Assembly: GCA_963788655.1 (NCBI GenBank)
Contig: CAWBHS010000017.1
Coordinates: 1-64,000 of the forward strand
DNA length: 64,000 nucleotides
Direction of reading: 5' to 3'
Source: an uncultured Verrucomicrobiae bacterium
GTDB taxonomy: Bacteria > Verrucomicrobiota > Verrucomicrobiia > Limisphaerales > JAFGQR01
Position numbers and translations under genes: made by a program. Below the pieces are notes generated by a model. The model saw only the letters and a list, made by a program, of their open reading frames with translations. It did not search any database and had not been told where the DNA came from. Of this stretch, positions 24,199 to 50,059 are shown in pieces. The stretch's first letter is position 1. Every line of letters starts with the position of its first letter.

Positions 24199-24205
24199 TT
24201 TAGAT

Positions 24206-24415: not shown

Positions 24416-24470
24416 AAGAATGAGCCTCAATCCGATTCAAGCACAGTCGCCGGGTGTATTGCCCATCTTT

Positions 24471-24911
24471 TCAAACTGGGAACAACGAGAAACTTAGCCG
24501 TCTGGCCGCCTCGCGCATCCGCTTGTCGGTGGACACAACTTCCGTTTCTCCGGCCACGCGAGCGGTGGCCAGGTGGAGCGCATCGAGAGTGCGGAGCGGA
24601 ACTGGCTGGGGTGGCTGATAGCATGCAACCAGCACCTGCCCATATTCCCTTTCCAAATCGGCTCCCAATTCCACCAACCGCAACTCGCCGGCGTTTACGT
24701 CCTGTAGCAACTGGGCGTAAAGCATTTGAGCTGTCCCCGCCTGGAGGATGGCTTCCATTTCCTTGCGCTGGAACGTGGCCCGGGCTTCGTAAAGTGCGAT
24801 TCTGGAGGTAACGGGCTTGGCGGAAGCGTTCAGGGCGTAGTGTTCAAAGGCGATCGAGTCCGCCTCCTGCGCGTAGAGCTTCACCAAAGTGGACGTGTCC
24901 CAGTAGCTCAT
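24471..24911 (-). CDS. vapC: PIN-domain VapC toxin
   Basis: YWDTSTLVKLY, YE, LRTLDALHLATA, STDKR. Confidence 0.92.
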   Translation of the reverse strand: MSYWDTSTLVKLYAQEADSIAFEHYALNASAKPVTSRIALYEARATFQRKEMEAILQAGTAQMLYAQLLQDVNAGELRLVELGADLEREYGQVLVACYQPPQPVPLRTLDALHLATARVAGETEVVSTDKRMREAARRLSFSLFPV

Positions 24912-25166
24912 TTAGCAACGATCCGACCGGAGGTCCTCCAGTATCTCCTCGGTCGTGGGCGAAGTCTTGCCGGTGGCGGTGCTTTCGCGCAACTGTCGTA
25001 GCCGCGCCAGCCAAGCCTGTCGATTGGGCATTGGCTCCGGTGGCGGCACCGCGCTAAGTTTGGCCACGGCGCGGCCCTGGCTGGTGATGACCACTTCTTC
25101 GCCTTGCTGCACCAAGTTGACCAGCTTCAACAGGTCAGCCTGGGTTTGTTCTAACGTCGCCGTCAT
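24912..25166 (-). CDS. Phd/YefM family antitoxin
   Basis: LLKLVNLVQQGEEVVITSQGRAVAKL; abuts vapC. Confidence 0.9.
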   Translation of the reverse strand: MTATLEQTQADLLKLVNLVQQGEEVVITSQGRAVAKLSAVPPPEPMPNRQAWLARLRQLRESTATGKTSPTTEEILEDLRSDRC

Positions 25167-25363
25167 AGCAGCATTGAACCATTTTGCTGGGCATAGTCAA
25201 TTTCAACCACGCAGGAACCGTTCACCCATTCAACGAGACTGCCAATGTTCTTGAGCCGTTTGTGCCTCTTTGGTGGCCAGCTCAACTGCGGAATCCAGCG
25301 GTGCTCTGACGAGCCACCGCCACAACCGGTTTGGGTTTTGACGGGGACATGAAGTATGCGGGA

Positions 25364-28164
25364 CTAACGCTGCGCGCGCACGGTTTTGGTTTCACCATTA
25401 ACGACGATTGTTACCGGGCGTGGCTGGGTCGAGGTGATGCGGTAGTCCGTCACCGTGCCGTCCTGCCACTGGAAGTCCACGGTGAAGTTGCCGCGCGCGC
25501 GCAGGCCCTGGACGGAACCCGTCGCCCACGCCTTCGGCAGGGCCGGGAGCAGGCGGAGGATGGGCTGGCCGTCGGGGGTGAGTTCGTGGCTTTGAATCAA
25601 CATTTCAGCCACGGCCGCACAGCCGCCGAAGTTGCCGTCAATCTGAAACGGCGCGTGCAGGCAGAACAGGTTCGGCGCGCCGCGGCCAATCAGCATCGTC
25701 AGCAATTTGTTGGCATGGTCGCCATCCTGCAGGCGAGCCCAGAAGTTAGCCTTCCAGGCCATGGACCAGCCGGTGGAGGCATCGCCGCGACGTTCCAGCG
25801 AAAGTCGCGCGCCTTGGAACAATTCGGGAGCCTGAGGATTGATTTCCGTTCCTGGGTAAAGACCCCACAGGTGCGAACAATGGCGGTGATGAATTTCAGC
25901 TTCCTCGAAATCTTCCTGCCATTCCATGATCCGACCGGCTTGGTTCACGCGGGTGGGCATGAGCCGGGCCCGGGTGGCGTCCAGGCTTCGGGCAAAGTCT
26001 TCGTCGGTTCCGAGGATGCGTGCGGCTTTGGCAGTGCGGGCCAGCAAGTCGCGGATGATTTGCAGGTCAAAGGTTGAGCCCACGCAGAAGGACGTGGTGT
26101 GACTCTTTCCGTCGCGATCTTGGTAGCGGTAGGAATTCTCCGGGGAGTTGGAGGGGGCGGTCACCAGCAAATGGGTCTTGGGATCCTCCACCAATACAGC
26201 CTGACAGAACTCGCTCGCCCCTCGCATCAGCGGATAATACTTCCGCAGAAATTCCTTATCCAACGTGAAAGCATAATGCGTCGCGATGTGCTGGGCCAAC
26301 CAGGCGCCGCAGGTGGGGCCAACGCAAGCCCCCAGGTTGCTCGGCGAAGTGTCATACCAGGGATTCTGCGTGTGGTTCGCCATCCAGCCGGGGGCGTTGT
26401 AATAGGCCTTGGCGGTCTTGGCGCCTTCCCGGGCCACGCCCTCGATAAACCGCATCAGCGGCAGATGGCACTCCGAAAGATTCGCCACCTCGGCCGGCCA
26501 ATAATTCATCTGCAAATTGATATTGCTATGAAAATCGCCGCGCCAGGGGGTGTCGTATTCCTCGGCCCATATCCCTTGCAGATTGGTCGGGAGTTGCGAG
26601 TCTGGCCGCGAGCCGGAAACCATCAGGTGGCGACCGAACTGGAAGTAGAGCGCCGCCAGCGCTGGATCGGGAACGGCTTCCGCTTGGCGGACACGTTCCG
26701 GCGTGGGTAACTTCGAATTGGCGCCCTCGGGCAGCGAGATCCGGCAACGGTTCATGAACGACGAATGGTCGGTTGCTGCCGCGTTTCGAATGGCCGCAAA
26801 CGGTTTCGCCAGGGCCCGGGTTAACCGCTGTCGCACTCCAGACGCATATTCCTTGTCAAACAGGTCCGTGCCGGCGGACACGATGAGCGTTACCTCATCC
26901 GCTCCCGCGATGGACAGGCCGGATTCTGTAGCCGTGACGGTGCCGCCTTGGGTGGTCGCGCCGAGAAGGGCCAGGTAACGCACGCCTTCCCCGGTGGCGC
27001 CTTTGGGCTTGTGGAAAGGAAGCTGGCCTTCCATCCGCTGAAACTCGCCCTCGGTCGCGGTGCTTGCGTTCTCCCGGCGGGACAGGGCCGCAGTCAACGA
27101 GAGGGCACCCGGCTGGCTGGCCTTGAGGTGCAGCGCGATTACTTCATCCGGTTTGGAAACCACCAGTTCGCGCGTGAAACCAACTCCCTCGCGCGTGTAC
27201 CGCGTGGTGGCCACGCCGGTCATCAGATTGAGATCACGCCGGTAATCGTCCGGCACGGAACCCGGGGCGGTGGTCATATCAATGCCCGTCAAGACGATCT
27301 CCGCTACCTGGAAGTAAGCTTCCTGCGGCGTGAACGTGAAACGATAGAACCGGCAGGCGGCTGGCTTGGCGATGTCAAAGGTCTTAGTCTGGTGACGTTG
27401 TTCAAATGGTTTGCCGGGGCGGCGGCGGTCCAGTTCAGTCCAGGTTTTGCCATCCACCGATCCCTCGAGTGCCCACACTTGAGGATCACGATTGGGCATG
27501 TCGTCTCCACTGGTCAAAGTATAAGAGGAGGCGGTCTGCTCCTTGACCAACTCGATCTGCCAAACCACGGCTTGGCCGCCTTATCCACACACCACTTCGT
27601 GCCAGGATCGCCATCCACGCAATTGGCAATCGTTTTCCCGTCCCCGTGCTCGTGTCCGCTGGGCGAGATAACTTTGTTCTCCGTCGCTTTGCCGCCAAAA
27701 TTCAAAGTCAAATCACCCAGCGTTTGATACGATCCGAATTGATCTCGATCATTCCAACCGCGGACACCATCGGCATAACCGAAGTTCCGGGAGAGCTCAC
27801 GCTGCGCTGCGCCGAGGTTGCCGGCAAACAGGTTGCTGCGCACCTCCGGCAGGCATTGATAGGCCCCATAGCGATTGCCGTCGTAGGGACCCCCGGTCCA
27901 GACGGACGACTCGTTGAGCACAATTCGCTGCTGGCTGATCCCACCGAGATCCATGGCTCCCAGCCGGCCATTGCCCAGCACCGAAGATTCATGGAAAGTG
28001 CGAGCGGGCTTCACAAACCACACGCTCATCGGCTCGACCGGAACCCACGCCGCATCGGCCGGTTTCGGATTTTGGCCCGCATCCATTGGCTGGGCCAAAA
28101 GCGGACCCGCGATCCAGGTCAGCAGCGCTGCCTTGCCAATAATCAGCTTCAGGAACTTCTTCAT
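25364..28164 (-). CDS. GH95 alpha-L-fucosidase with inserted F5/8 (CBM32-like) domain; one frameshift near 27570
   Basis: [55 protein letters not shown]. Confidence 0.92.
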
Positions 28165-28320
28165 AAGGCTATCCAGACTTTGGTTTATTTCAGACGGTGT
28201 GGTTCAGGATAGAAGAATCCGTACTGCACGGGAAGCATCAAAAGAGACTGGTTCTTGTTGAATGGATGCCGCTCAGCAAATCGGCTCGCATAATCCGGCG
28301 CCGAGACAGATGCTTCGCGC

Positions 28321-31300
28321 ATGACATTCACCTTAGTAATGCCCTGCGTGCGCTTCGCTCGACGCACGACTTCTCATCCGCTTCAATGCTTCAACTTTTT
28401 GATCCTTCAACCACTTCGTCTTCGGTTCTGCCGCGCTCTATCACTGGCAGCGCTGCTGGCGCTTGTTATTAACGGACGTACTGCCCAAAACGCGGCGAGC
28501 ACCGCGACCGGAATACGCCCGAGTCTCGACCTGGACGGCGTTTGGGAATTTGCCACCGACCCGGAGCGGAGCGGGGAAAAGGAGAAATGGTTCGAGCCGC
28601 AATCCACGTGGCCCGCCATGCCACGGACGGGTTATGCGCCAACCGCCAATGGCACCATTCGCGTTCCCGGGATTTGGGACAATCAAGGGTACGGGACCGA
28701 AACGCCTAAAGTGCGCCACAACTTTGTGGGCTTGGGTTGGTATCGGCGAACAGTCCGGATCCCGTCAGACTGGACGGGCCGGCGGGTGTTTCTTTGGATC
28801 GGTGGCGCGCACCGTTATGCAAAGGCTTGGGTCAACGGCCACTATTTGGGCGAGCACATCGGGTATCTGTCGGCGTTCGAGTTCGAAGTGACGGACCAGG
28901 TGCGAACAGGTCAACCGGCGACGTTGGTCATTCAAGTGGACTCCCAACAACGTTGGGAAGTGGACACGATGTTTGGAGCGTCGGATCTGGCCGATTACAT
29001 GGACGTGGCTTGGGGCGGAATTTGGGGTCACGTGCGGTTGGAGGCGCGGGCTCATGTCTGGCTGAGTGAACTGTTCTTGCAACCTCACGTGAAGACCTCC
29101 AGTTGCACCGCCAGCGCAAGAGTGCATGGCGACGCGGGTCAGGCCGAAGCAATCAGGTTGGAAGTATGGGACAGCAACGGCCAAAAGGTGACGCAGAAAG
29201 AACGTCGCCTCGAAGCTCCGCTGGTTGCCGGTGCCAACGTGCAAATCACCGCGACGATTCCTGAGGCCAGGTTGTGGTCGCCGGATCAGCCGGTGCGGTA
29301 TCGCGCCCGGCTGACTTTGCTCCAGGCTGGCAAACCACTGGATGTGATCGACGATGGCTTTGGAATGCGCGAACTACGTCTCGACGGACCGTTCATCATT
29401 TTGAATGGCAAACGATTGTTCCTGCGCGGTTACGGCGACGATCATATTTATCCGGAGCAAATGGCGATGCCCACGGACAAGGAGCTGTTCCGGCAACGGC
29501 TGCGGCTCATCAAGAGTTACGGATTCAACCACGTTCGCCATCACAGCACCATCATGCCGCCGGAGTATTACGACGCTTGCGACGAGATCGGCATCATGCC
29601 CACGGCGGAGTTTCCCATCGCCTACGCCTCCTACTTGCCGGGCGCGGAGCAATGGAAGCAGCACGTGCCGCCGGGCACCGATCCGGGGCCGGCGTGGGAA
29701 ACCTACCAGCGCGAATGGGCCGCCGCCATCAAACGCCATCGGAATCATCCCTCGATTTTCGCCTGGGTGATGGGCAACGAGTTGTGGAACGGCATTCCGT
29801 TGCGTCACGAATTTCAACGCCTCGCCCGCGAATTGGATCCGCGCCGGCCCTTTGCCGACACCGACGGCGTCACCGAAATGTGGCAGCACATTCTCGATCC
29901 GAAGAACGACCGCGAAACGCTGGACGTTTATTTCCTGATGTTCGACGTGGGCCGCAATCCGTTGGACCTGCCGGACAAATTCAAAACGCCTCGACCGATC
30001 AAACCGATTATCTCGCATGAGACGGGCAACTACGTGACGTTCACCCGGCCCGATTCGGCGGCAGCCTTCCGCGCCAACATCAAACCGTTTTGGATGACGG
30101 AAGGCCGGACCAAACTCGAGCGCTTGGGTTTGCTGGATGAAGCGCCGCAGTGGGCGGAAGCATCCGAACGGCTCTATGGTCTGCTGCACAAGACCAACCT
30201 GGAGGCGCTGCGGAAGAATCCCTTCATCTCCGGTTATCACTGGTGGTTGTTTCAAGACTATTGGACCACGGCCAACGGTTTGGTGGATCATTGCTTTCGT
30301 CCCAAGTCCATTACGGCGGACACGGTACGCCGGTTCAACAATGAGGTGGTCTTGCTCCAGGATGGTTTGGAACTGACCTACCGAGGCGAGGAACTGATGA
30401 CGGTGAAATTGCTCGTGTCCAACTATTCTCCCGGATTGCTGACTGACGGCCGGTGCGCATGGTCGTTGCGAGCGAATGACCAGGCGATTGCGGGTGACCA
30501 ATTACCGGGCGCGCACGTGGGGCAGGGGGACGTGGCACAAGTGGGGCATTTGGAATTAACCTTGCCGGACGTCAAAGAGCCGACGCGGTTACACCTTGAA
30601 GTGGAATGGCTGGACAACTCTCTGAAGACATCCGCTGCCTCCCAAAAGCGCTGGCAGAATGATTGGACCACTTGGCTGTATCCGCAGTCCATCGCGAAGC
30701 CGGCGATACCGGTTCCGCTATATGGCAGTGCGGCACAATTGAAGCGGTGGCCGGAATTGGGTCTGGCGCCAATTCCCCAAACGGGCGAATTGCCCAAGCG
30801 CGCGGTTTACGTGATGGGCCATCTCAACCGGCGGGTGCTGTCCACGGTGGAACAGGGCGCCTGCCTGGTGTTGCTCCAGGGCGGGCGAGTGTTCAATTCG
30901 CGGCCGTTGACGTTCCGCAGCTCGTGGTGGAAAGCCGGCGACGACTTGAACGCCAACCTGTGCGGAACGCGAGTGTATGATTATCCCATCACCCGCGCCA
31001 TGGCGCCGGACGGTTGGTGCGATGCGGGTTGGTTCCACTTGCTCGAAGGCGGAAGGAAAATCATCCTCGAGCAATTTCCCCAGCGTCCGCAAGTGATCAT
31101 TCGCGCGCTGCCCAGCCTGCGAGCGGTGGAGGACGACGCGATCCTGTTCGAGGTGGGACTGGGTCAGGGTGCGTTGCTGGTGAGTGGCCTGAACCATGAA
31201 CAAAGTCGCGGCCGGCCGGAGAACGATTGGCTCCTTGCGCAAATGATGAAGCATGCCGCTACCTTGCCAAGCCCCAAGGTCAAGTGGCCCCTGGCGGCCT

Positions 31301-31824
31301 TGCCGCTGGCGGAGCGTTGGCACTGGACGGGGCGCTTTCCGGCTTTGCGAAGCTGGTGCGCAATGACGGCGAAGAAGGCGTCTGGTATTCCTTTCGCGAA
31401 GACAATGTGAAGATGCCCATCTGCCGTCAGACCCAGCTCGGCCACCTGGTCGAATGGGAAACGGCACCGGTGCCGACCGATGGGAAGGAAGATCGGGTGA
31501 CGTTCGTTTTTGCCGGCGGACTGGGTTATCGCTCGGAGCCCAAGACTGACGGATTTGTGTTCCTCGTGAACGGTTCGGAGCAAGTCCGCTTCGACCTGCC
31601 CGAGCAGACCAACCAGTGGCAATCCGCCGACGGACGAGTAACCATGCGCTTTCGTGACATTGCGCCAGTTGCCCCACGATCAACTGGGATTGTTCCAGAT
31701 AACGTTGGCCAGCACCTTCTGCCAGCCAGGGAAACCTTGCCGGTTCGGCGTGCGCTCACTGGGACAGGGCAGCCGGCGCTGGTTTGGTCTGAACCTCTAT
31801 ACCGACGCGAACGAAGCGGAATAG
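28321..31824 (+). CDS. GH2 family glycoside hydrolase; frameshifts near 31310 and 31660
   Basis: LDLDGVWEF, GWYRR, FGMREL, GFNHVRHHS, CDEIG, RNHPSIFAWVMGNE, HETG. Start uncertain. Confidence 0.88.
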
Positions 31825-34623: not shown

Positions 34624-35499
34624 TCACGTCGCCGGCACGAATTGCTGGAGCACCAAGGTCAGGCCGAACAATCCCAGGAACGCCAGCGCGGTGGCCGCAT
34701 TACCGCCACATACCGCCAGTAAATCCACGAGCACGATGCCGGCCAGCAAGCCGGACACACCCCGGCCGATGTTGCGCTGCACCGTCCAGAACGCGTAGCG
34801 CAGACAATACAGCATCCAAATCACCAACGCGCCGCTCAACGCCGCGCCCTGGATCAAGTACGGCCCGCGGTCCACAACCAGCGCCAATAGGATAGGGACG
34901 CCCAACAGCACACACGGCCAGTAGCGAACCGGCGTTTGGATGCTCTCCTTGCTCGCCAGGTAACTCAGACCGGCAATGTAGGAACCCAGCGCTAGCGCCG
35001 ACCAAACACTCAAACCCGTGATGCCATCGTTCCCGATGGAAGCCGCCATCAACACCAGTAAGGTCCGGCACGCGGCCATAAACACCGGCGAAAAGGCAAA
35101 AATCTTGTGGATGGCATCATAGACCAGCAGAGCCAGCGCGAGCAGCACGGCGATAATGACTGTGCTCTTGTTGAACATCGCCAGGCAGATCAATCCGATG
35201 GCCAGCATGCTTAGGCCCATTTTCCAAACCGTGGTGACGTGAACTTGGCCCGAGGGAATGGGCCGTTCGCGACGATGCTGCTGGTCGAATTGCACATCGA
35301 ACGCGTCGTTGAGGAAAACTCCACCTAGGTACAGCCACGTGGCGCCAAGCGTGAGCCACAGGAACTGTTCGATTTCGCCACCACCACCCAACAGCCATCC
35401 CGCCAGGCAATTCGACCAAACCGTGGGCAGGTTCGACACGCGTCCCAAGACAAGCCAGGTGCGCAGATTAGTGACTGGAGCAGAGGTTGCCATGGTCAT
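34624..35499 (-). CDS. eboC: UbiA family prenyltransferase (EboC-like)
   Basis: GRVSNLPTVWSN, FLNDAFDVQFD, RPIPSG, VYD..HK; next to eboE. Confidence 0.85.
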   Translation of the reverse strand: MTMATSAPVTNLRTWLVLGRVSNLPTVWSNCLAGWLLGGGGEIEQFLWLTLGATWLYLGGVFLNDAFDVQFDQQHRRERPIPSGQVHVTTVWKMGLSMLAIGLICLAMFNKSTVIIAVLLALALLVYDAIHKIFAFSPVFMAACRTLLVLMAASIGNDGITGLSVWSALALGSYIAGLSYLASKESIQTPVRYWPCVLLGVPILLALVVDRGPYLIQGAALSGALVIWMLYCLRYAFWTVQRNIGRGVSGLLAGIVLVDLLAVCGGNAATALAFLGLFGLTLVLQQFVPAT

Positions 35500-35698: not shown

Positions 35699-36878
35699 TC
35701 AAATGGCCCCCAGTCCCCGCTCCGCCATTCGCTGCAAGGTCCAATCGTATTCGGCGGCCAGTTGGTCGATCACGCTGCGGTTCTTCATTTCCGGCGGCAT
35801 GACTTCCCACGTGTAGGTTTCCATTTCCAAGTGCCGACATAATGCCGGCTCCTGTGCCAGCAAGTCCAGCAAACCCAGCAGATGATCGGCCGTGTTTTGG
35901 AACCGCGCGGTCGGCTGGCTGTGCAGCGGAATGTGAAAATGGATGCGCCACTCGATGGAAGAATCATCTTCGCCGGCAGCTTGCTCGGCTGGCAAGCGCC
36001 ACGTCCAGGTCGCGATACCGCACCAGCTGGCCGTCCGCCTGACGTTCGATGACCTGGTGAAAATAGACTTCGTCGGCAAACGCCCGGAGCGCCGACTGCA
36101 CTTCGGGGGTCGGTTGCACTTTGAGTGCGGAGCTGAGGTGGAGCTTGCTGATCTTGATGCCGTGTTCGCGAAAACGGTTTACCACCGCGGCCGGTTCTTC
36201 AAACTCGACCGCCAGATGGCAGGTGTCGTAATTCACGCCGAGATGCTCGTTCAACCGGTCATCGCCCGGACGATCGGCCCGCATCCGCTCGAAGAACTCG
36301 GCCGTTTCCGCGCTGGTTTCGAGCGTACACAACGGTTCCGGCTCCAATCCGAGGTGAAGCCGTTTGCCGGATTGCTGACTGAGCTTGGCGATATGTTCCA
36401 CGCACTGCCACAGGTTGTCGCGCATCGCTCGCACCTGGTCTTCGCTGGTGATGAATTCCTTGAACGAGCCGGGCACCGTGCTGACGCTGCCTTCGACGCC
36501 CTCCGGCACGAGTTGCGCCAACAGATCAAAGAGCCGATTCGTAAACGCCAAACGCTCCGGAGCCGTCCAGTCGGGACGATAGACCTGTTCCTTGACGCGG
36601 GTGCCGTGAAACGTGCCGTAGGGAAAGCCGTTAATCGTGAACACGTAGCATTGGTGTTCCTCCAGCCAGCGTTGGAAGGCGGTGAGCGTTGTCGGGACGC
36701 TCAGTTCGCGCGACGCCTGATCGCTCAAGCGCAGGCCAATGGCGTACGGTTTGCCGGGGCATACCCGTTCCCGCACCGCCAGCGTGTAGCGTTGGAGCGC
36801 GTCAAAGGTCTCCGCCCAGGTTTCGCCGCGATGGATGTTCGTGCAATAGGCGAGGTGCAACCCATGCTTCAGTTTCAT
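35699..36878 (-). CDS. eboE: Metabolite traffic protein EboE (xylose-isomerase-like TIM barrel); frameshift near 35985
   Basis: AYCTNIH, IGLRLS, FTINGFPYG.FH..VKEQVY.PDW, LEPEP, DTCHLAVEFE, EWRIHFHIP, HLEMETYTW. Confidence 0.92.
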
Positions 36879-37038
36879 CGCCCCCACGTTTACCAGTCAT
36901 GCCGGAAACAGGCGAGTGTGAATCTGAAAATGCCGGCCGCCGCTCCTCTCCGTCGCGGTGGATGGGATGGATAGGGTGCCGGTTCGGACGCTGCTAACCT
37001 GAATAATTGTCACCCCAGGCTTAGCACGCCGACAGCCT

Positions 37039-37189: not shown

Positions 37190-37429
37190 GCACCGGGTAG
37201 GGGTGAGCGGTCGCCCGCTTTGCTCCTGCAAATCCCACCACTTCCAATGGCCGTCTGCGTTAAGCTCCCAAACAAGCTTCCGCTCGCGGCAATGCCACGT
37301 GCCAGCCATCGACGCCATCGAATTCGCCGAGGATGGAGAAATGGCGAGGGCGGCTGGCTCCTCTGTCGTGTGAGGCGTGGCACAACCGCACAGAAGCACT
37401 GCAAGGAAATACGATGCGATGCATTTCAT
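37190..37429 (-). pseudogene. Last (apparently truncated) cassette gene: small lipoprotein
   Basis: Lipobox MKCIASYFLAVLLCG-C; MAGTWHC..LVWELNADGHWKW lipocalin-like start. ATG lies 18 nt after the intron 3' end. No downstream attC found; breakpoint approximate. Confidence 0.55.
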
Positions 37430-37446
37430 GGCGCGTGCAAAGTGGG

Positions 37447-38263
37447 ACCGGGTAGGCGTAGGCGGTCACCCGCCCACGCCCCCCTAAGAACCGGACTTGA
37501 AAGTTTCCCTTCATCACGGCTCAAGCCTCTCCAAGGCCACCCCGGATGCGGGGGACCCGCGTAACCAGGAGGCCGGTGACACCCAAAGGCGTCATGGACC
37601 TTCCCAATCCCACTTGGCAATACCGGTCGGCGGCCATATCGCGCCCGGCTCCTTTGGGCCGCAGCACCGAGAGGCACCAAGCGACGGGCGTCGCTCGTCC
37701 TATGCTTCTCTCGCTTGAAGGGGTTCCGCTGATTTTCTTGCCAGGAGACACCAGATCGACGTGGGCATATCCGGTCCATTACCGACCGGCCTTGGCTTGT
37801 TCGATCCTCTTCATGCTGCCTCCCCTGGGCCTGCCTTGCGGTCGGCTTGCCTGGATACTCTCCAGGCGGGAACTGGCAGCTTTTCCATGTTCCGCATTCT
37901 CCACAGGATGGGTTAGGTCCACTCTGTACACCGGCGGTGCGCCATTCGCGTCGGGCTACGTTAGACAGCCCGAACTTGACCGCTGGCCTTCTTTTGGCCG
38001 GAGCCTTAAAACAGCCTCGTATGGCTCGTTCCTCTGACGATGCTTGCGAGTGTTCACGTGGGTTGACCCTACCATCCAATTCTAGCGCCGCACCCGGATT
38101 GAGGCTCCCAGGCTGGCTACATTGTCGGGAAGGCTTCACACCCTGGACAGTAGCCTTACGGCCGCCCGCCCAACGCATGCTTCCCTGGAATACCTGCCGC
38201 GAAAGGCAGGACTGAGTCAGGTTGCCCATGCTCAGCAGTGATGAATGCGACTTCATGTCACAA
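37447..38263 (-). mobile_element. ORF-less group II intron (817 nt) inserted in attC core site
   Basis: 5' end TTGTGACATG; domain V GAGCCGTGATGAAGGGAAACTTTCAAGTCCGGTTC (37522-37488) with AGC triad and GAAA loop; domain VI with bulged A at -7 ending CCTACCCGGT; EBS1 hairpin at 37973-37951; no RT ORF. Confidence 0.9.
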
Positions 38264-38384
38264 CCAACGCCGAGGTGAGCGAGGGCTGCCGGCAGCGCCC
38301 GCTCGACTGTGAAGAAAACGGTGGAAGAACCCGGTGCTCCCGCTGCCAGACGGGGCAGCCCTTCGCTCTACCGACTGGTTGGGC
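38264..38384 (-). mobile_element. attC site 1 (R' box interrupted by the intron)
   Basis: Top strand GCCCAAC...GTTGG. Bottom-strand hairpin GGT/ACC, GAGCGA/TCGCTC, GGGCTGCC/GGCAGCCC with two extrahelical T. Confidence 0.85.
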
Positions 38385-38394
38385 ATTCTCGGTT

Positions 38395-38986
38395 TCATTT
38401 TGGTGCTGCGCTGGCTTCCCTCGCGAGGCGTTTGCGAATCGCCGCCAAGCTCTTCTCGTTCTCCTCGTCGGGCCACAACTCGTAAGCGCGAAGGAACTGC
38501 CTCTCCGCATTTGTAACGTCGCCCAATCCCAGATAGATGCTCCCGAGGTAGGCGTGTCCGTAATAGTAGTTGGGCTGCTTGGCGACCAACTGTTGCGCGA
38601 GGGACAGCGCAGTCTGGTAATCCAGACGGTCCATCGCGGCGCTTACCTCGCGCCAGGGACGCGCCGGCGACTGTTGCGGCGTTGTGCGCGACTCATCGTA
38701 GCGGTCTCGGTCGTGGCGAAGTATGGCCATGTAAACAACTGCCCCAGTCAAAAAAACTGCGAGGAACCATGTCTGAAGCTGTCCGATCTTCCTGAACTTC
38801 TGTAGCTCAGTCAATATGCCCGCATTGATGTTGTCGCTCCTGGCAGGTGGTGGGGACCGGAAATGCGTCCTGCTCGGGCTATCGATAGGGGGCACCCTCA
38901 GCAGCAGGCTCGAAACACGTTCCACATTCCGAGCAATGCAAGGACTCCTCTGGGTTCTCACGTCCGCAGTAGTCACACCGTTTCAT
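38395..38986 (-). CDS. Cassette gene: zinc-ribbon + TM + TPR protein; frameshift in C-run near 38890
   Basis: ATG 38986 gives MKRCDYCGRENPEESLHCSECGT; the next frame gives a TM helix and TPR (YYGHAYLGSIYLGLGD..AERQFLRAYELWP). Stop lies just before attC1. Confidence 0.75.
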
Positions 38987-39006
38987 ATTTGCCCCTGAAT
39001 GATGTT

Positions 39007-39102
39007 GCCCAACGCCGAGATCACCCATGAGCGGCATCCCAATACCGCTCAAATTCTAAACCGACGTGCTTGCCGCTCATTGGGTGAATCGATTGGTTCG
39101 GA
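39007..39102 (-). mobile_element. attC site 2
   Basis: R'' TCCGAAC, R' GTTGGGC (complement of attC1 R''); stem TCACCCA/TGGGTGA and TGAGCGGCA/TGCCGCTCA with extrahelical A and T. Confidence 0.88.
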
Positions 39103-39103
39103 T

Positions 39104-39409
39104 TCATTTCGTCTCTTTCAGGTCAGGCTGATACTGGGTGTCGATCAAATCATAATCCCTGCGGATGCGAGACAATGGATCCTGGTCTGGGAGGATCCGT
39201 CTCGAATTGGGCAACATCTTCGCTGGGTCAGCAGGGGGCAGCGTGAGATGGAATCTCTGCGTCTGAACCTGAGTGAAGGTGAAGACTGGTCCAATTGGGG
39301 CACGCCTACTCGAAGTGGTCTGAGAAGGTACAAGCAGGCAAAAGCAAAGCACGAATCCCCCACAAAATCCGGCTAGTCCCCAAAGTATATGTTTTGATCT
39401 GGCATTCAT
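39104..39409 (-). CDS. Cassette gene: small membrane-anchored hypothetical protein
   Basis: 101 aa with one N-terminal TM helix; fills the space between attC3 and attC2, with its stop abutting R''. Confidence 0.7.
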   Translation of the reverse strand: MNARSKHILWGLAGFCGGFVLCFCLLVPSQTTSSRRAPIGPVFTFTQVQTQRFHLTLPPADPAKMLPNSRRILPDQDPLSRIRRDYDLIDTQYQPDLKETK

Positions 39410-39436
39410 AAAATGCGGGCGACGGATGCTTTTGTT

Positions 39437-39563
39437 TCCGAACAACCAAGCTCACCGATCCGCGCCGGGCGGGACGGTCGAGCGTGAAAGAAACGATGGA
39501 AAAACCAACTGAGCAACGAGCGGAGGATCGGGGCGCGGATTCGTGTGCAGCGCTTGGTTCGGC
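39437..39563 (-). mobile_element. attC site 3
   Basis: R'' GCCGAAC, R' GTTCGGA (complement of attC2 R''); stem GCT/AGC, CACCGA/TCG(T)GTG, TCCGCGCC/GGCGCGGA. Confidence 0.85.
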
Positions 39564-39834
39564 GTTTGATGAGATAGCTGTGGACGCTGCTCTAAGACGG
39601 ATAAGGGCAACCCAAAACGTCGAAGACCAGACCGGTCGCTACAAATACCCAGACTGCGCAGATGTGCTGGCCGCAGAAGTCGAACGCCTGCGATCTGTCT
39701 CCGAAAAGCAGCAGTGGCGGATAACCAGCCTACAACAAGACATGCGCACGATAATGGACGTTACTCGATGGGAACACCAAGCGCACCAGATCGCCAAGCG
39801 CGCTCTGACGCCGAACAACCAAGCTGAGCGATGA
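39496..39834 (+). CDS. Reverse-oriented cassette gene: phage-like hypothetical protein
   Basis: Starts inside attC3 (ATG 39496 or GTG 39484); LAAEVERLR coiled-coil motif; stops inside attC4, overlapping the next ATG. Confidence 0.65.
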   Translation: MEKPTEQRAEDRGADSCAALGSAFDEIAVDAALRRIRATQNVEDQTGRYKYPDCADVLAAEVERLRSVSEKQQWRITSLQQDMRTIMDVTRWEHQAHQIAKRALTPNNQAER

Positions 39835-39907
39835 GTGCCCCATCCCAAACTCCCGAACTGCCAATCAGCGTGGCGGGGCACTCATTCGCTCCAGCGCCTG
39901 GTTCGGC
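39810..39907 (-). mobile_element. attC site 4
   Basis: R'' GCCGAAC, R' GTTCGGC; stem GCTG/CAGC, AGCGA/TCGCT, TGAGTGCCCC/GGGGCACTCA with extrahelical C and T. Confidence 0.9.
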
Positions 39908-40493
39908 GTTCAGGTGTGTGATGGCCGACCCGCCGTGGCAACTGACGATGCGCGGCAAACGCAAGCGCGCCAAAGAGCCAAACCTGCCGGAATCGCTACC
40001 GTATACGACGATGACTCTGGACGAAATCTGCGCTCTGCCAGTCGGTGAACTCTGTGCTGATGACTGCCACTTGTGGCTGTGGACTACCAACCAACACCTG
40101 AGAGACGGCTTTCGGGTAATGGAGGCGTGGGGCTTCCGGTATCTCGCGCCCGTCCACTGGATAAAACCGAGCGGCGTCGGCAACTGGTTCGTCCACCGCA
40201 CGCAGACAATACTGATGGGATACAAGACCCGATGCCGCTTCGAGCGCGCCCGCTACCGGCCAAACATCGTGACGACTGGCGACCCGAAGCGGCACAGCGA
40301 GAAGCCGGAGGAAACATACGCGCTCATCGAATCTGTGAGCAGCGAGCCACGGCTGGAAATGTTCGCACGCCGGAAGCGTCCCGGCTGGCAGTCCTGGGGC
40401 AACGAAGTCACCAGCGACGTGATACTGACGCCGAACGTGGAGGTCACCGACCGGCAGAAAACCAGAAAGGAAACGGATGCCAAACAAACATGA
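39831..40493 (+). CDS. Reverse-oriented cassette gene: MT-A70 family N6-adenine methyltransferase
   Basis: MADPPW catalytic motif, YTTMTLDEICALPV, CHLWLWTTN, HSEKPE, LEMFARRKRPGWQSWGNE. Confidence 0.92.
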   Translation: MSAPSQTPELPISVAGHSFAPAPGSAFRCVMADPPWQLTMRGKRKRAKEPNLPESLPYTTMTLDEICALPVGELCADDCHLWLWTTNQHLRDGFRVMEAWGFRYLAPVHWIKPSGVGNWFVHRTQTILMGYKTRCRFERARYRPNIVTTGDPKRHSEKPEETYALIESVSSEPRLEMFARRKRPGWQSWGNEVTSDVILTPNVEVTDRQKTRKETDAKQT

Positions 40494-40538
40494 AACTGAC
40501 ACGCAGGCAGCCGGTTCGCGTGAACCGATTGGTTCGGT
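40430..40538 (-). mobile_element. attC site 5
   Basis: R'' ACCGAAC, R' GTTCGGC; stem GG/CC, TCACCGA/TCG(C)GTGA, CCGGC/GCCGG. Confidence 0.82.
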
Positions 40539-40845
40539 GATCCCGGCCCCGTGGGGTGGCATGGAATGGAAACATGCCTTGATGGCTCGAAACCTAATGT
40601 CATCCCGAAAATGGATATGCCGGACCGAGTGGGGGCGTGAATTTGTTATTGCGTTCAAAGAACCGGGTCCAATTGCGCTACTCTGCATTGAGGATCGGCT
40701 GTGGCCAGTTAAGCCGTATTCACCGAACGTCCCGGATCACCGACCGCCGCCGGAAACGGGCGCTGGCAGCGAATCCAGCGTCCAAAGTATGCGGTGCGTC
40801 CTAACCGAAGTGCGGGGCGGCGGTTCGAGTGAATCCGATTGTTAG
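40477..40845 (+). CDS. Reverse-oriented cassette gene: hypothetical protein
   Basis: RBS AGAAAGGAAAC and ATG inside the attC5 loop; stop TAG within GTTAGCC of attC6. Confidence 0.55.
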   Translation: MPNKHETDTQAAGSREPIGSVIPAPWGGMEWKHALMARNLMSSRKWICRTEWGREFVIAFKEPGPIALLCIEDRLWPVKPYSPNVPDHRPPPETGAGSESSVQSMRCVLTEVRGGGSSESDC

Positions 40846-40847
40846 CC
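40722..40847 (-). mobile_element. attC site 6
   Basis: R'' GGCTAAC, R' GTTCGGT (complement of attC5 R''); stem GGA/TCC, TCACCGA/TCG(A)GTGA, CCGCCGCC/GGCGGCGG-like. Confidence 0.85.
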
Positions 40848-40848
40848 G

Positions 40849-41313
40849 TCATCGTTCTAAAAGTGGTAAATCCTTCCGCGCATCTCTAACGTAATCCTCC
40901 AACGTGGTCACTCGCTTGATGTAGTCAGGATCACTAAGCATACCCTTCAAAGATGCCAGCATCCGCAAGGACCAATCACATCGAACCAACTCCTCTCGGT
41001 GTGACTCTGAATACTTGATAATTACGCGAGCAAGAACAGACATCCTCTCAAGGTCCTGTTTGTCTGCTGTCTCGTTGAGCTTCCGCAATTCCGTCAGGCT
41101 CGACTCAAGACTCATGATGCCGTGGGCGCGCAATTCGTCTGGGGTGTCCTTGTAACCGGGCTTGTCCATGACCTTATCCGCCGCTTTCATAGTAGTCACA
41201 GCGTCCACCGCAGAAGCGTAATAGCTCTGATAAAGTGCTCGACGACACTGGGAATGTCTCTGGCACCCTTGGCAAAGCAGCAACAGCGTAAGAAATGTGA
41301 CTGATAATCTCAT
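40849..41313 (-). CDS. First cassette gene: predicted lipoprotein, all-helical hypothetical
   Basis: MRLSVTFLTLLLLCQG-C lipobox; lower GC; stop abuts attC6 R''. Confidence 0.75.
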   Translation of the reverse strand: MRLSVTFLTLLLLCQGCQRHSQCRRALYQSYYASAVDAVTTMKAADKVMDKPGYKDTPDELRAHGIMSLESSLTELRKLNETADKQDLERMSVLARVIIKYSESHREELVRCDWSLRMLASLKGMLSDPDYIKRVTTLEDYVRDARKDLPLLER

Positions 41314-41322
41314 GGCGGCCAC

Positions 41323-41372
41323 GGCTAACTATAATTATGCGGAACTGAGTTCCGCATATCATGGGTTACACC
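41323..41372 (-). mobile_element. attI-like (or minimal attC-like) site heading the array
   Basis: Top strand GTGTAACCCATGATATGCGGAACTCAGTTCCGCATAATTATAGTTAGCC; the core GTTAGCC is complementary to attC6 R''. Confidence 0.6.
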
Positions 41373-41475
41373 CAGGCAGAATGACCGGATTTGTGGCCTC
41401 GGAGTTCCGCTTTTCATGGAGCCATTCCCAAGCCTCTCCGCCGGTCCTAATGGTGGTTTCCGCCACATATCGGCC

Positions 41476-41503
41476 ATGTTAATCCCCTCACCTCCAATGT
41501 CAA
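41476..41503 (-). promoter_or_regulatory. Candidate Pc promoter firing into the cassette array
   Basis: TTGACA-N16-TAACAT on the minus strand, about 150 bp upstream of the first crossover site. Confidence 0.55.
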
Positions 41504-42002
41504 GCAAAACCTAATAGTGCCTTGATTTGCAGGACTTTTGAACCATCCTCCGTGCTGACCCGAGCGCTGATCTCCGGGGGATGAGTCGGTGAATGCTCCC
41601 CGCCAGCGGCCATACTTGGGGCTCGACTCCTGGCGACCCGGGCCGGTAATATGCCGAACCCAGATGAGGCCACCAAAAGCCGAACTGCCCCGACGCTGGT
41701 GGGCACGCTTCGCCTGCAAGTCAGAACCATCAATTCTTCCTGGCCGAACAGCTTAAAGGAAGTTGGGGCGAAATCGGTGGGAGGGTTTATAGCTGACCGC
41801 GAGCAGTGACCCACCGGAAAATGGAAATTACAGCCCAAGGCAACGAAATCGCCGGGCGGTGAGAAATTTGAACATACCGGTCGTTCAATAGCCTCGATGG
41901 GGGGCAGAACGGAGTCTGAATTTTTCCTTGGAAAGTGTGGGCTTACGGAGCCTCCTGGCGTTGGCTAACGTGCAATCACGCTGCCAAAGCAACCCAATCG
42001 TC

Positions 42003-44291
42003 ATGAAGTTTTCGCCGTTTGCTGGCTGCCTGGTTGGAAGTCTGGCCGTGCTGGCAGGCTCCGCCGGCGCTGCCCAAGGCCCGGGCTCAACTATCTGGGG
42101 CCAAGTCGTCCTCAAACAGCCCTTTGACAAAGCACCGTTCCGCCCGGTGGCGATTCCGGATTGGGTTGGGGATACCGTGGGGGTCGGTTACACGCTCTCC
42201 GGGCAAAGCACCGAACAACGCGCCCGGGCGGCGGCGGCGGGAGTGTCGATCAGCGAATTGATCTTTGTGGATCCGTTGTTCGTGTATTACGACAGTGACT
42301 TGTTGCACCAGCGCAGTCCGCACGTGCCGCCGGACCGGTTAACCAACGATATTGCTGAATACAAACGGCTCGGCATCCGCATTTTGGCGGTATATCCGCC
42401 GTGTTTGCAGGGCGAGGTTTATGCCCAGCATCCCGATTGGCGACGGATTCCCACGAACACACGGGACATCCCGCAAGTGGATCTGGCTCGTTATCCCCAC
42501 GGTGGCATGCTGTGTGTGCTCGGGCCGTACGGGGATTTCTTCATCGAGGTACTGGCCGAGATTGCCAATCGGTTTCCGGTCGTTGACGCCTTCAGTTTCG
42601 ACGGTCTGCACTACGGCGGGGTGTGTTATTGCGCGCATTGCCGCGACGCGTTCCGCCAGGAAACGGGCGGGGAAATTCCGGACGTCAACCTGGATGATCC
42701 GAAATTCCGCCGGTATCAGCATTGGGCCGACCGGAGGATGGAGAATCTCGTGCAACGGATGCAGACGCGACTGAAAGGTATCAAGCCGACTCTGGCGCTG
42801 GTGACCTGGAGCACGAATGCCGGGCGCTTTGGTCATTTGCGCGACATCCCCCGGAACATGCCGGCGCGGATGAACCTGTTGCTCGACGCGCCCGATCAGG
42901 AGTTCTGGCTCGACGAGAGCAACCGCGGCACCACGATCCTGCCCGCCTTCGCCAACGCGTATATCTGGGCGGTGAGCAATCATCGGGTGGCCTTCAGCGA
43001 ACCCTACCTGATGTCGCACGGCAATCCGTACGGCAAGGACAGCTTTCCCGCGCACGAAATCGAGCGGCGCATGCTCCTGGCCATTACGCATGGAGCCGGC
43101 TGCAGCATCGCGGTCGGGCAACCGCCGAATCTCCAACCGGCGATCGATCATTGCCTGGCCGAAGTGCAGCGGCGCAAACCCTGGTTGACGCACAAGTCAC
43201 CCGAGCCCTGGGCGGCGCTGGTGATGAGCGACAACACGCGCAACTTCTACGGCCGCAGCCCGGGACAGGTCGAGGAACGTTACCTGGCTAATGTGCTGGG
43301 CTTCTTTCGGGCGGCGTTGGAAGCGCACTTGCCATTGACCATCATCAATGATTGGAACCTGACCACGAATGACCTGGCTCCCTTCAAAGTGCTGGTGTTG
43401 CCCAACACCGCCTGTTTGGACGAAGCGCAGGTGGCGGCGATTGAGAATTTCGTGGCGCGCGGCGGCGGATTGGTGGGGAGTGTCGATGTATCGTTGGCCG
43501 ATGAGTTTGGCGATCCGCGGTCGGTGCCGGCATTGGCCCGCGTCTTTGGCGTGAAGGTATTGGGCGCGCCGCGCACGGGGCCGGCGAACCGCCAACTCGA
43601 CGTCAATTTTGCGAAGGCCCTTGACGCGAGCTATTGGGAAAAGCGCCAAGGGATCTGGGATTTTCAACGGGCGCCCGGCAGCTTTCTCGATTCGCCGCGG
43701 ATGGAGGAATACTTGGGCAACGATCCGGTCACGTTCAAAGGCCAGGCGATCCACGTGGCGCCCCTCGGTTCGGAAGCCTCGGCGATTGGCCGGTTGCGTC
43801 CCAAGCCGGGCATTGCCGGGGAAACCATTCCCGCGATTGTCACGAACACCTACGGGCGGGGGCGGACTGTTTTCCTGGCTGCCGGTTTTGATTCGGCGTA
43901 CTACCTCTACCCGTATCCGTATCAACGGCTGATTCTCGAACAAGCCGTCACCTGGGCTGCCGCCACGCCGCCGCCGGTGGTGGTTACGGCACCAATGTGC
44001 GTGCAGGCGGTCACGATGCGCCAGCGCTGGCGGGGCGAACGTTTGGTGGTGCATTTGTTCAACGATGTGAATACCACCGCCAACCATGCGTTCCCGGTCG
44101 ATGATGTGCCGTTGCGCGAGGAAACTTTGCCGATTTATGACATCAAGGTGACGTTCCACGGGTATGATCTGTCCCGCGTCCACCTTGAGCCGGAAGGCCT
44201 GGAATTGGTTCTCCACCGAACCGCGAACGCGGTGGAAGTGGTGGTTCCCCGCCTGGATATTCACAGCATGGTCGTGGCCGAGTTGCGATAA
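42003..44291 (+). CDS. Secreted GHL6/GH42-like glycoside hydrolase with beta-galactosidase trimerisation domain
   Basis: Signal peptide; QHPDWR, DAFSFDG..CYCAHCRDAF, FKVLVLPNTACL..FVARGGGLV. Confidence 0.75.
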   Translation: MKFSPFAGCLVGSLAVLAGSAGAAQGPGSTIWGQVVLKQPFDKAPFRPVAIPDWVGDTVGVGYTLSGQSTEQRARAAAAGVSISELIFVDPLFVYYDSDLLHQRSPHVPPDRLTNDIAEYKRLGIRILAVYPPCLQGEVYAQHPDWRRIPTNTRDIPQVDLARYPHGGMLCVLGPYGDFFIEVLAEIANRFPVVDAFSFDGLHYGGVCYCAHCRDAFRQETGGEIPDVNLDDPKFRRYQHWADRRMENLVQRMQTRLKGIKPTLALVTWSTNAGRFGHLRDIPRNMPARMNLLLDAPDQEFWLDESNRGTTILPAFANAYIWAVSNHRVAFSEPYLMSHGNPYGKDSFPAHEIERRMLLAITHGAGCSIAVGQPPNLQPAIDHCLAEVQRRKPWLTHKSPEPWAALVMSDNTRNFYGRSPGQVEERYLANVLGFFRAALEAHLPLTIINDWNLTTNDLAPFKVLVLPNTACLDEAQVAAIENFVARGGGLVGSVDVSLADEFGDPRSVPALARVFGVKVLGAPRTGPANRQLDVNFAKALDASYWEKRQGIWDFQRAPGSFLDSPRMEEYLGNDPVTFKGQAIHVAPLGSEASAIGRLRPKPGIAGETIPAIVTNTYGRGRTVFLAAGFDSAYYLYPYPYQRLILEQAVTWAAATPPPVVVTAPMCVQAVTMRQRWRGERLVVHLFNDVNTTANHAFPVDDVPLREETLPIYDIKVTFHGYDLSRVHLEPEGLELVLHRTANAVEVVVPRLDIHSMVVAELR

Positions 44292-48012: not shown

Positions 48013-48124
48013 CACCGCCAATTGAATTTGTGAGCAGTGTCTGTTTCCGGTCACTGCTTTTTTGCTTAATGAACACAATTGATCTAACAACTGGTTTTTC
48101 CGAGTGGATAGCAGGAGGCGTTTC

Positions 48125-48595
48125 GTGGACTTAAAGGATATCCGAGCCATCATCGATTTGATGAAGAAGAACTCGATCTCTGAATTCGAGTTGGAACGTC
48201 AGGATTTCAAAATTCGGCTCAAGCGCGGCGGAGCAACGGTGGGACAAATTGACGAAAACGGCTATTCGCCGGCTATCGTTAGCGTTCCCGTGGCTCAAGT
48301 TGCCCAAAACGCCGCGACGCCGCCCCCTCCAGCGCAACCAGCGCCCACCGGCGAATTGGAGATCAAGTCGCCCATGATCGGCACCTTCTACCGCGCGCCC
48401 TCCCCGGAATCGGCGCCTTACGTTGAGGTGGGCACCGAGGTCAATGCCGAAACCGTGGTCTGCATCATCGAGGCCATGAAGGTGATGAATGAAATCAAGG
48501 CCGAAGCGCGAAGGTGGTCATCACCCAGGTTCTGGTCGAAAACGCCAAGCCGGTCGAGTTCGGCCAGCCGATGTTCAAGATTCGGCCGTCTGTGA
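48125..48595 (+). CDS. accB: Acetyl-CoA carboxylase biotin carboxyl carrier protein; frameshift near 48510
   Basis: [19 protein letters not shown], then [16 protein letters not shown] in the next frame. Confidence 0.93.
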
Positions 48596-48663
48596 CCCCG
48601 CGTCCCGGCTTTGCCAATTGGCCAGAGTTATACTGCTTAATTCGCCCTACGCTCACGCTCAGC

Positions 48664-50059
48664 ATGTTCGAAAAAATTCTAGTCGCCAATCGCGGCGAAA
48701 TCGCCGTCCGCGTCATCCGCGCCTGCAAGGAACTGAACATCCGCACCGTGGCGATCTATTCGGAAGCGGACGCCAATTCGATGCACGTGCAGATGGCCGA
48801 CGAAGCGATCTGCATCGGCAAAGGCCGCCGCCAGCGAAAGCTATCTGCGCATTGATCGCATCGTCAGCGCGGCGGAGATCACCGACGTGGACGCCATCCA
48901 TCCCGGCTACGGGTTCCTGGCGGAGAACGCCCATTTCGCGGACGTGTGCGAAAGCTGCAACATCCGCTTCATCGGCCCCAGTTCCCGCGCGATGAACGCG
49001 CTGGAGGACAAGGCCGTCAGCCGCGCGCTGGCCAAGAAGGCCGGCGTGCCCACGCCCCCCGGCTCCGATGGGGTGGTGGAGAACGAGCAGGACGCGCTGC
49101 GCGGTCGCCAAACGCATCGGCTACCCGGTGATGATCAAGGCCGTCGCCGGCGGCGGCGGCCGGGGCATGCGCGTCGCCCACAACGACATTTCGCTGGTCA
49201 AGGGCTACCACACCGCGCGCACCGAAGCGGAGAAGGCGTTTGGCAATTCGGGCGTTTACATCGAGAAATTCATCGAGAATCCCGCACCACATCGAGTTCC
49301 AGATTCTGGGGGACAACAAGGGCCACATCATTCACTTGGGCGAACGCGATTGCTCCATCCAGCGCCGCAACCAGAAGGTCGTCGAAGAAACGCCCTTCGC
49401 CGCTGTTCGAAACCGAAGTTCAAGAGACTTGCGCGAGAAGATGGGCAGGGCGGCCATCAAGATTGCCGAAGCGGCCCAACTACACCAACGCCGGCACCGT
49501 CGAGTTCATCGTGGATGAACAAGGGCAATTTCTATTTCCTCGAAGTCAACAAGCGCATCCAGGTGGAGCACCCGATCACCGAGGAGGTCACCGGCATGGA
49601 TCTGGTTGCGCTACCAAATCATGCATCGCCATGGGCGAGCCGCTGCAAGCTCTCCGCAAAGCGAATCCGCGTTCAAGGGCCACGCCATCGAATGCCGCAT
49701 CAATGCCGAAGATCCCTTCGACGAGTTTCGTCCCAGCCCGGGCCGCATCGAGATGTATTACCAGCCCGGCGGCCGCGGCGTGCGGGTGGACAGCCATGCC
49801 TATGCCGGCTACACCATCCCGCCCGTCCTACGATTCGATGATCGGCAAGCTCATCACCACCGGCCGAGATCGCCGCGAAGCCATGGACCGGATGAGCCGC
49901 GCGCTGGGCGAATACATGATCACCGGCGTCAAGACCACGATCTCCTTCCAGCAGGCCATCCTGCAGGATCCCAATTTCCGGCGCGGGGTTTATTCGACCA
50001 ACTTTGTCGAGCAACTGCTCTCCGGCGCCCGGCGCGAGCTGATCGAAAAGGATGTTTAG
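48664..50059 (+). CDS. accC: Biotin carboxylase; many frameshifts (probable sequencing errors)
   Basis: [68 protein letters not shown] spread across frames. Confidence 0.93.

Follow-up and report, generated by a model that had tools for sequence, protein, structure and literature searches.

A six-cassette integron array without a neighbouring integrase, followed by a group II intron without a reading frame, in an uncultured Verrucomicrobiae bacterium

The first 64,000 nucleotides of contig CAWBHS010000017.1 (GenBank assembly GCA_963788655.1, from an uncultured Verrucomicrobiae bacterium), hereafter the window, carry an integron cassette array with six imperfect palindromes of 96-127 nt that span 38262-40847 (2.6 kb). 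Our results show that these palindromes have the architecture of attC sites, with cores of the AAC/GTT type, a spacer that stays unpaired, a stem that covaries and, on the R''-L'' arm, two or three bulges, and that the array has the minus strand as its top strand, so that plus is the bottom strand, the one that recombines, and the reading direction is from 41329 to 38264. Each unit is a former circle that was integrated by G/TT cleavage, as the chimeric pattern of the cores shows. We therefore read the locus, with a probability of about 0.9, as a chromosomal cluster of attC sites lacking an integron integrase (CALIN), the term being used as in the cited passages of Cury et al. 2016 (IntegronFinder; PMC4889954): six cassettes of 292-745 bp, each ending in attC, in a neighbourhood without an integrase. 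A first-pass annotation, made from the letters and a list of open reading frames (ORFs), had already described six palindromes of 96-127 bp bounded by AAC and GTT in this region, and their positions are given here. A group II intron without an ORF stands at the far end of the array and is treated after the evidence for the array itself.

Along the minus strand the sites follow one another as F (40722-40847, 126 nt), E (40430-40538, 109 nt), D (39810-39907, 98 nt), C (39437-39563, 127 nt), B (39007-39102, 96 nt) and A, the last (38262-38384, 123 nt, or 38264-38384 without intron nucleotides), whose 3' core is cut by the intron after GTTGG. Three bulged bases are present in F, E and C, and two in D and B. 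On the plus strand all six sites begin with NNNNAAC on the left and end with GTTNNNN on the right. The junction of upstream non-cassette DNA with cassette 1 is formed by the first-cassette core 7-mer at 41323-41329 (GTTAGCC on the minus strand, a lone GGCTAAC on the plus strand), which complements the R'' of site F exactly; upstream of it, a scan with the covariance model R1 described below found no attC-like site. The same relation runs through the whole array, since on the minus strand the leading GTT 7-mer of every unit perfectly complements the AAC 7-mer that opens its own palindrome (6/6), a result given by 2 of the 720 permutations in which cassette-start and site 7-mers can be paired. 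The cores are thus chimeric: the leading 7-mer of a cassette matches its own R'' and not that of its neighbour, whereas the two end 7-mers within one site match exactly in one site of six. From this exact chain it follows that the units were once circles, integrated by cleavage between G and TT. All six complementary R'/R'' pairs that the first-pass annotation had listed were recovered there without a mismatch.

When aligned on the minus strand, the six sites share one consensus fold of 23 pairs, made up of a 6-bp core helix, an unpaired spacer (5 nt on one side, 5-6 nt on the other) and a 17-bp stem with single-base bulges. Pairing is seen in 132 of the 138 cells of this fold (95.7%) and compensatory changes, affecting both sides, at 11 of its 23 pairs. 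None of 500 shuffles reached the observed pairing or covariation score, and pairing falls to 26-43% when partners are slid by 1-3 columns. Mean column identity is 62%, with invariant blocks, and the structure is kept while sequence and loop length vary. The bulges stand at alignment columns 16, 20 and 24 and, in all six sites, exclusively on the 5' arm of the minus strand (the R''-L'' arm), in agreement with the earlier remark that the extrahelical bases lie on the same arm.

The attC of the aadA1 cassette of plasmid R100, which adjoins intI1, served as strand control. On its coding strand this site has its extra bases on the 5' arm, the same polarity that the array sites show on the minus strand. 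A first covariance model, R1, was built from the six array sites, and their high scores with it on the minus strand (81-99 bits; A 87.3, B 88.8, C 98.7, D 84.5, E 99 and F 81.4) follow from its construction. On the plus strand four sites score 9.8-18.9 bits and E and F give partial matches only, and the best R1 score elsewhere in the window is 13.1 bits. R1 found no match at E<=1 in 1.3 Mb of control DNA, and the remaining 60 kb of the window hold no further copy. It did recognise the aadA1 attC of R100, end to end on the coding strand with 37.5 bits (E 6.8e-9) against 5.7 bits on the other strand, and the two bulges of that site align with columns 16 and 24. For the second model, R2, the sole input was seven attC sites of class 1 integrons, each taken in top-strand orientation (aadA1, blaVIM-1, aacA4, aph(3')-XV, blaGES-5, blaOXA-1 and qacG2). 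In an unfiltered search of the entire window it ranked highest the sites A (25.1 bits, E 1.2e-4), D (22.2 bits, E 7.5e-4), E (19.1 bits, E 0.0056) and B (16.5 bits, E 0.031). These four matches are on the minus strand and have exact ends; the next match has 10.1 bits. The first-pass annotation had held that its reading would fall if attC covariance models scored none of the sites; R2 ranks four of the six at the top. Its choice of the minus strand as top strand likewise agrees with the bulge polarity of aadA1 and with the strand preference of both models, and it is the bulge arm together with the R1 and R2 results that makes minus the top strand. Rfam reported none of the six sites at E<=5.

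With the minus strand on top, an integrase would be expected to the right of 41329. The next gene on that side, which is glycosidase-like, starts at 42004 with the ATG of a signal peptide; the roughly 675 bp in between have no protein-family match, and twelve six-frame pieces of 41234-42187 gave no Pfam match at E<=5 and no intI remnant in any frame. None of the 71 ORFs with 57 aa or more in the 64-kb window has a Phage_integrase domain (Pfam, E<=1e-3), IntI1 of R100 has no tblastn match in the window at E<=10, and a tyrosine recombinase is absent from the 37 kb to the left and the 22 kb to the right of the array. The earlier statement that none is visible at 41500-42000 or elsewhere was therefore upheld by domain, six-frame and tblastn searches alike. 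A complete integron, with intI beside attI at the head of the array, was not found, an attI not being recognisable by sequence. With six attC within 2.6 kb in 64 kb free of integrase, the label CALIN-like is well chosen.

The six cassettes all read on the minus strand. Cassette 1 (40728-41328, 601 bp) has a sense ORF at 40849-41313 for 154 aa with a lipoprotein-like signal peptide. The sole ORF of cassette 2 (40436-40727, 292 bp) is antisense, at 40561-40845 on the plus strand, with about 55 codons inside the cassette and the rest running through attC F, and its coding status is doubtful. Cassette 3 (39816-40435, 620 bp) carries, also antisense, an MT-A70 DNA methyltransferase ORF (39831-40493, plus) whose last 19 codons lie in attC E, and cassette 4 (39443-39815, 373 bp) an antisense ORF for 116 aa (39484-39834, plus). 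Cassette 5 (39013-39442, 430 bp) has a sense ORF at 39104-39409 for 101 aa with a hydrophobic N-terminus. Cassette 6 (38268-39012, 745 bp) contains a zinc-ribbon ORF (38879-38986) and a membrane/tetratricopeptide repeat (TPR) ORF (38395-38976) in two frames, which read as one gene split by a one-base frameshift at a run of five C near 38890, either a pseudogene or the result of an assembly indel. The sense ORFs of cassettes 1, 5 and 6 stop 1-10 nt short of their attC. The first-pass annotation had overlooked that half of the six ORFs are encoded on the other strand and run across the crossover point, and its rule of one gene per interval is doubtful for the 292-bp cassette 2 and fails at 37426-38256, where the supposed gene is group II intron RNA (RF02012 and RF00029).

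The protein of cassette 3 matches Pfam MT-A70 (E 4.4e-31) and PADLOC MTase_II (E 9.4e-49, residues 25-203 of 220), and cassette 6 matches Pfam Zn_Ribbon_1 (E 6e-4) and TPR_16 (E 6.2e-7). No family match was found for the proteins of cassettes 1, 2, 4 and 5 in Pfam, NCBIfam or PADLOC, and PADLOC and NCBIfam gave nothing beyond the methylase and signal-peptide or TPR noise. A protein atlas returned weak leads at 0.89 for cassette 1 and unnamed clusters at 0.90 for cassette 4, which are sub-threshold or unnamed. Base composition shows no clear island: the flanks have a GC fraction of about 0.60, and there are only dips to 0.51-0.54 in cassettes 1 and 5. If the predicted cassette genes are expressed at all, this would be through minus-strand read-through or, in the case of the three that are antisense, from promoters of their own.

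Directly after attC A, and beginning inside its core 4 nt past the crossover point, lies the group II intron (37447-38263, minus, in sense on the top strand), 817 nt long, which starts with UUGUG and ends with GU; with the intron removed the core reads GTTGG^CC. It has a D1-D4 core (38086-38211, minus; Rfam RF02012, 62 bits against a gathering score of 34), a D5 helix and a D6 with a bulged A, as a group II intron should, D5-D6 being matched at 37447-37524 on the minus strand (RF00029, 49.6 bits against 40). At about 817 nt it consists of RNA domains alone: Pfam detected no RVT domain, and the best of five LtrA proteins by tblastn reached E 0.17, which is noise. The left part of the interval that had been annotated as array (37190-38261) is thus this intron with a truncated ORF, and not a cassette gene. 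The 5' junction reads ...GCGTTGG / TTGTGAC ATG AAGTCGC and the intron's 3' end ...CCCGGU. The 5' end falls at 38263 if the two T's belong to the intron, and was placed there by a comparison by eye with the published intron UHB.I2. [quoted passage not shown] The minimum-energy fold of the whole intron (z = -6.1) is uninterpretable as domains and was not used. We suppose that an intron of IIB type later invaded the far end of the array in sense orientation; lacking a reading frame and having a non-consensus 5' end, it would depend on a maturase supplied in trans for splicing or mobility.

The start of a small lipoprotein ORF (37219-37429, minus) stands 17 nt past the intron's 3' end. It has no family match beyond a signal-peptide-only one, and represents either a resident gene or a seventh cassette whose attC has been lost. 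A repeat search found, 255 bp downstream of the intron, a second copy of its last 27 nt, the 3' half of D6, at 37192-37218 (minus, 85% identical), inside the extended lipoprotein ORF. This fragment may be the scar of a second insertion at a now-lost attC, left by an intron copy that was mostly deleted.

Several results weigh against a CALIN that reads on the minus strand. The strict consensus RYYYAAC is broken in five of the six R'' 7-mers, and one 7-mer of each kind follows the RYYYAAC/GTTRRRY pattern (39007 and 38378). R2 leaves sites C and F, two of the three sites with a third bulge, unlisted at E<=10 (F has a partial match of 8.2 bits), and site B is at background level, as the best R2 score in 1.26 Mb of control DNA is 17.3 bits. 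The plus-strand ORFs of cassettes 2, 3 and 4 overrun the crossover point by 39, 19 and 6 codons into the neighbouring attC, and their placement, which is the main point for the opposite polarity, would fit plus as top strand equally well. A synteny scan, with the glycosidase-like flank gene as query and 10 kb flanks, covered the best 80 of 114 confirmed loci and yielded among them no relative with the same neighbourhood, hence no variable cassette content was seen. For the methylase of cassette 3, the overrun into attC E is probably incidental read-through, because the conserved region of the protein ends within one or two codons of the crossover point.

The departure of the 7-mers from the strict consensus, along with the lack of an integrase in the window, would also suit intergenic repeats of another kind, such as repetitive extragenic palindromic (REP) or miniature inverted-repeat transposable element (MITE) sequences, that resemble attC by chance. 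We consider this extremely unlikely. An exact 7-mer chain between neighbours, and not within sites, is specific to cassette integration, the cross-model tests are reciprocal in that R1 finds a true attC and R2 finds array sites, and neither the remaining 60 kb of the window nor the 1.3 Mb of control DNA holds another copy.

The second alternative takes plus as the top strand, so that the array runs from left to right and the intron sits in the bottom strand like classical IIC-attC introns. The three plus-strand ORFs would then begin 14-25 nt past a site and end within the next one, and the three minus-strand ORFs would likewise be wholly inside cassettes. According to the cited part of PMC3001079, known IIC-attC integron introns do occupy the bottom strand, antisense to the cassettes and between a gene and its attC. 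One of our control loci has that geometry (L085, 3183-5233, on plasmid pNY4625-IMP), with a group II intron bearing ltrA placed antisense between blaIMP-26 and the next cassette of a class 1 integron. That intron is matched by RF02001 and RF01998, however, while the intron here belongs to RF02012 and is not IIC-attC-like; it resembles UHB.I2, which shares the orientation of its cassettes (PMC7923331). The bulges lie on the minus 5' arm, as they do in the top strand of the aadA1 attC, which R1 recognises in top orientation only, and R2 matches the minus strand only. A plus-strand array is accordingly very unlikely in our judgement, if less so than a chance likeness of unrelated repeats, and the minus strand is kept as top strand in what follows.

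The cassettes would have been assembled by an IntI, here or in another genome, and would now be mobile only if another part of the genome, or an element entering it, supplied an IntI. As to how the array came to stand without one, we give an even chance to the decay or splitting of a complete integron, whereby intI and attI to the right of 41329 were deleted or the array was moved from an integron elsewhere in the genome. This is the standard explanation of CALINs in the cited passages of PMC4889954, and attC arms that are as alike as in these six sites (62% mean column identity, invariant blocks) fit a single integrase lineage. It has against it that no intI remnant was detected in any frame of 41234-42187 or by tblastn over the window, and that no insertion sequence element or transposase is found among the 71 ORFs.

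A possible but rather doubtful origin is secondary-site capture, in which a trans-acting IntI inserted the cassettes at a genomic G/TT (attG-type) site in the 5' leader of the resident lipoprotein gene and the integrase was never local. Capture by IntI at genomic G/TT sites has been demonstrated experimentally in E. coli, and both insertion at GWT genomic sites and an origin of small CALINs by this path are put forward in the cited part of the same preprint (bioRxiv 10.1101/2022.09.11.507474). Both outer junctions of the array are G/TT, the roughly 675 bp without a family match before the next gene hold no integrase remnant, and without the intron only 17 nt would separate the last core from the ATG of the lipoprotein ORF. 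A promoter-like site (TTGACA-16-TAACAT, 41476-41503, minus) points into the array from 150 nt upstream of cassette 1, the right direction if it had been the lipoprotein gene's own promoter and now read into the array. Such sites are not above chance, however, with 3 seen against 1.8 expected in shuffles, and this one is a lead only. Six cassettes are also many to have been captured one after another at a single secondary site, an intron fragment truncates the lipoprotein ORF itself, and no genome with an empty site was found among the best 80 of 114 loci. In these loci the query gene was the only one in common, with none of the other flank genes, cassette genes or intron relatives, and four weak IntI-like matches (best E 0.32) included no credible one.

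Some features of the flanks and of the rest of the window may be recorded here. A perfect 10-bp hairpin with a loop of 3 lies at 41336-41358, just upstream of cassette 1 and between the promoter-like site and the array. The glycosidase-like flank gene has its best matches in two metagenome-assembled genomes of Verrucomicrobiota (73% and 72% identity), followed by many Planctomycetota (best 80 of 114 loci), which, from this gene alone, would tentatively point to a host in one of these two phyla. To the left of the array, a UbiA-family prenyltransferase (34624-35499, minus) has EboC as best NCBIfam match, with 115.7 bits and below the 250-bit cut-off, and the 343-aa ORF at 35943-36974, named eboE in the first-pass annotation, has no Pfam or NCBIfam match. 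The region 19490-31410 is rich in glycoside hydrolases (GH116, GH95, GH2) and in beta-propeller proteins of pyrroloquinoline quinone (PQQ) type, and this content of the left half fits a polysaccharide-degrading lifestyle of Verrucomicrobiota or Planctomycetota. The GH95 glycosidase at 25364-28164 (minus) appears to be split, with the start of its N-terminal domain in an overlapping ORF (27514-28164), which suggests a frameshift or an assembly error. A biotin carboxyl carrier/biotin carboxylase region (48104-50059, plus) is spread over three overlapping ORFs, the match of the carboxylase ORF being limited to the C domain and the end of the N domain; the broken region again points to frameshifts and bears on the trust to be placed in single-base details elsewhere in the window. 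Two ORFs at 271-690 and 1464-2267 (plus) each match the inactive M16 peptidase domain and may be a split gene or a pair.

The group IIC-attC introns (S.ma.I2 and relatives) are like the intron here in that they, too, immediately follow an attC hairpin on its 3' side within a cassette array. They differ in belonging to other Rfam D1-D4 families than RF02012 and in encoding a reverse transcriptase (RT). The domain V triad of IIC introns is CGC, as opposed to AGC in the intron here. An assignment to the IIC-attC group was considered and rejected on strand, Rfam family and domain V, the intron having no RT as well.

By sequence, the intron resembles the published IIB1 intron UHB.I2 rather than the classical IIC-attC introns. 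UHB.I2 is likewise in sense orientation to its cassettes, directly after the attC top strand, and has the same AGC triad in domain V; its ends are 5'-UUGCG...GU-3' against UUGUG...GU here, and 12 of the first 14 nt are identical when the sequence printed in the supplement is compared by eye (PMC7923331). At the matching D1 position, again by eye, it has a hairpin with the loop GUAGAACGU, where the intron here has GUCUAACGU. The intron thus shares with UHB.I2 the sense orientation after attC and the UUGYG...GU ends, and lacks the RT/maturase that UHB.I2 encodes in domain IV; host and habitat of UHB.I2 differ from those of this array. Our literature search found in print only one other non-IIC intron in the sense strand right after attC, and that one bears an RT.

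The loop GUCUAACGU, near intron position 298, is a candidate exon-binding site 1 (EBS1), its hairpin being aligned with a loop of the intron of pENVA (L083) that complements its own 5' exon at 7 of 7 positions. The segment CUAACGU of the loop pairs with the local exon GCGTTGG by five Watson-Crick and two G-U pairs, and it complements without a mismatch the sequence ACGTTAG, in which three of the class 1 attC sites behind R2 end on the top strand. For exon pairing the loop ranks second of about 790 positions. The assignment was unconfirmed in the homologues at L087, L088 and L089, and the 5' end was not found at L090. These complementarities suggest, though on slender evidence, that base pairing between EBS1 and the attC core may be the means of target recognition. 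We put forward tentatively, as a proposal that we ourselves hold to be rather unlikely, that UHB.I2 and the intron here belong to a IIB1 lineage which homes into the attC top strand through EBS1 pairing with the conserved end '(A/G)CGTTRG' of the site, the 27-nt D6 fragment then being the scar of a second invasion at a deleted attC. If true, this would be a second, independent intron route to integrons, distinct from the hairpin-guided homing of IIC-attC introns into the bottom strand, and the sense placement would let the intron be spliced out of cassette transcripts. A second independent intron case with the same unusual ends and a core-matching loop would make it testable whether some introns read the attC sequence, not the hairpin, and bears on intron-integron sequence exchange and on the old proposal that introns help to join genes to attC.

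The intron is the more useful part of the find, and a modest extra. The array itself is one more among several thousand known cassette arrays, a catalogue entry from a poorly sampled lineage. Besides an MT-A70 methylase it encodes several small proteins, secreted or in the membrane, without assigned function. The class 1 attC sites (aadA1, aacA4, blaVIM-1, blaGES-5 and others) share with the array sites the 7-mer core, the 5-nt spacer, the stem of 3+3+3 bp with bulges, the variable loop, and the second spacer and core. In the array, unlike in class 1 sites, column 20 holds a third bulge in three of the six sites, the cores are of a variant sequence, with NCCGAAC/GTTCGGN against RYYYAAC/GTTRRRY, and there are no resistance genes. 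CALINs are a common and well-described class, of which the array is an ordinary member that was correctly read as such from the start. The cited part of PMC9024848 counts 2961 CALINs in RefSeq with an average of almost six attC sites, close to the six found here, and the cited passages of PMC4889954 report no recognisable intI pseudogene near 95% of CALINs and place about half of them in replicons that encode IntI. As far as these passages describe them, published CALINs have at least two attC sites clustered within a few kb with intI absent nearby, their cassette proteins are mostly without database relatives (PMC4889954), as here, and nothing essential sets the present array apart from them.

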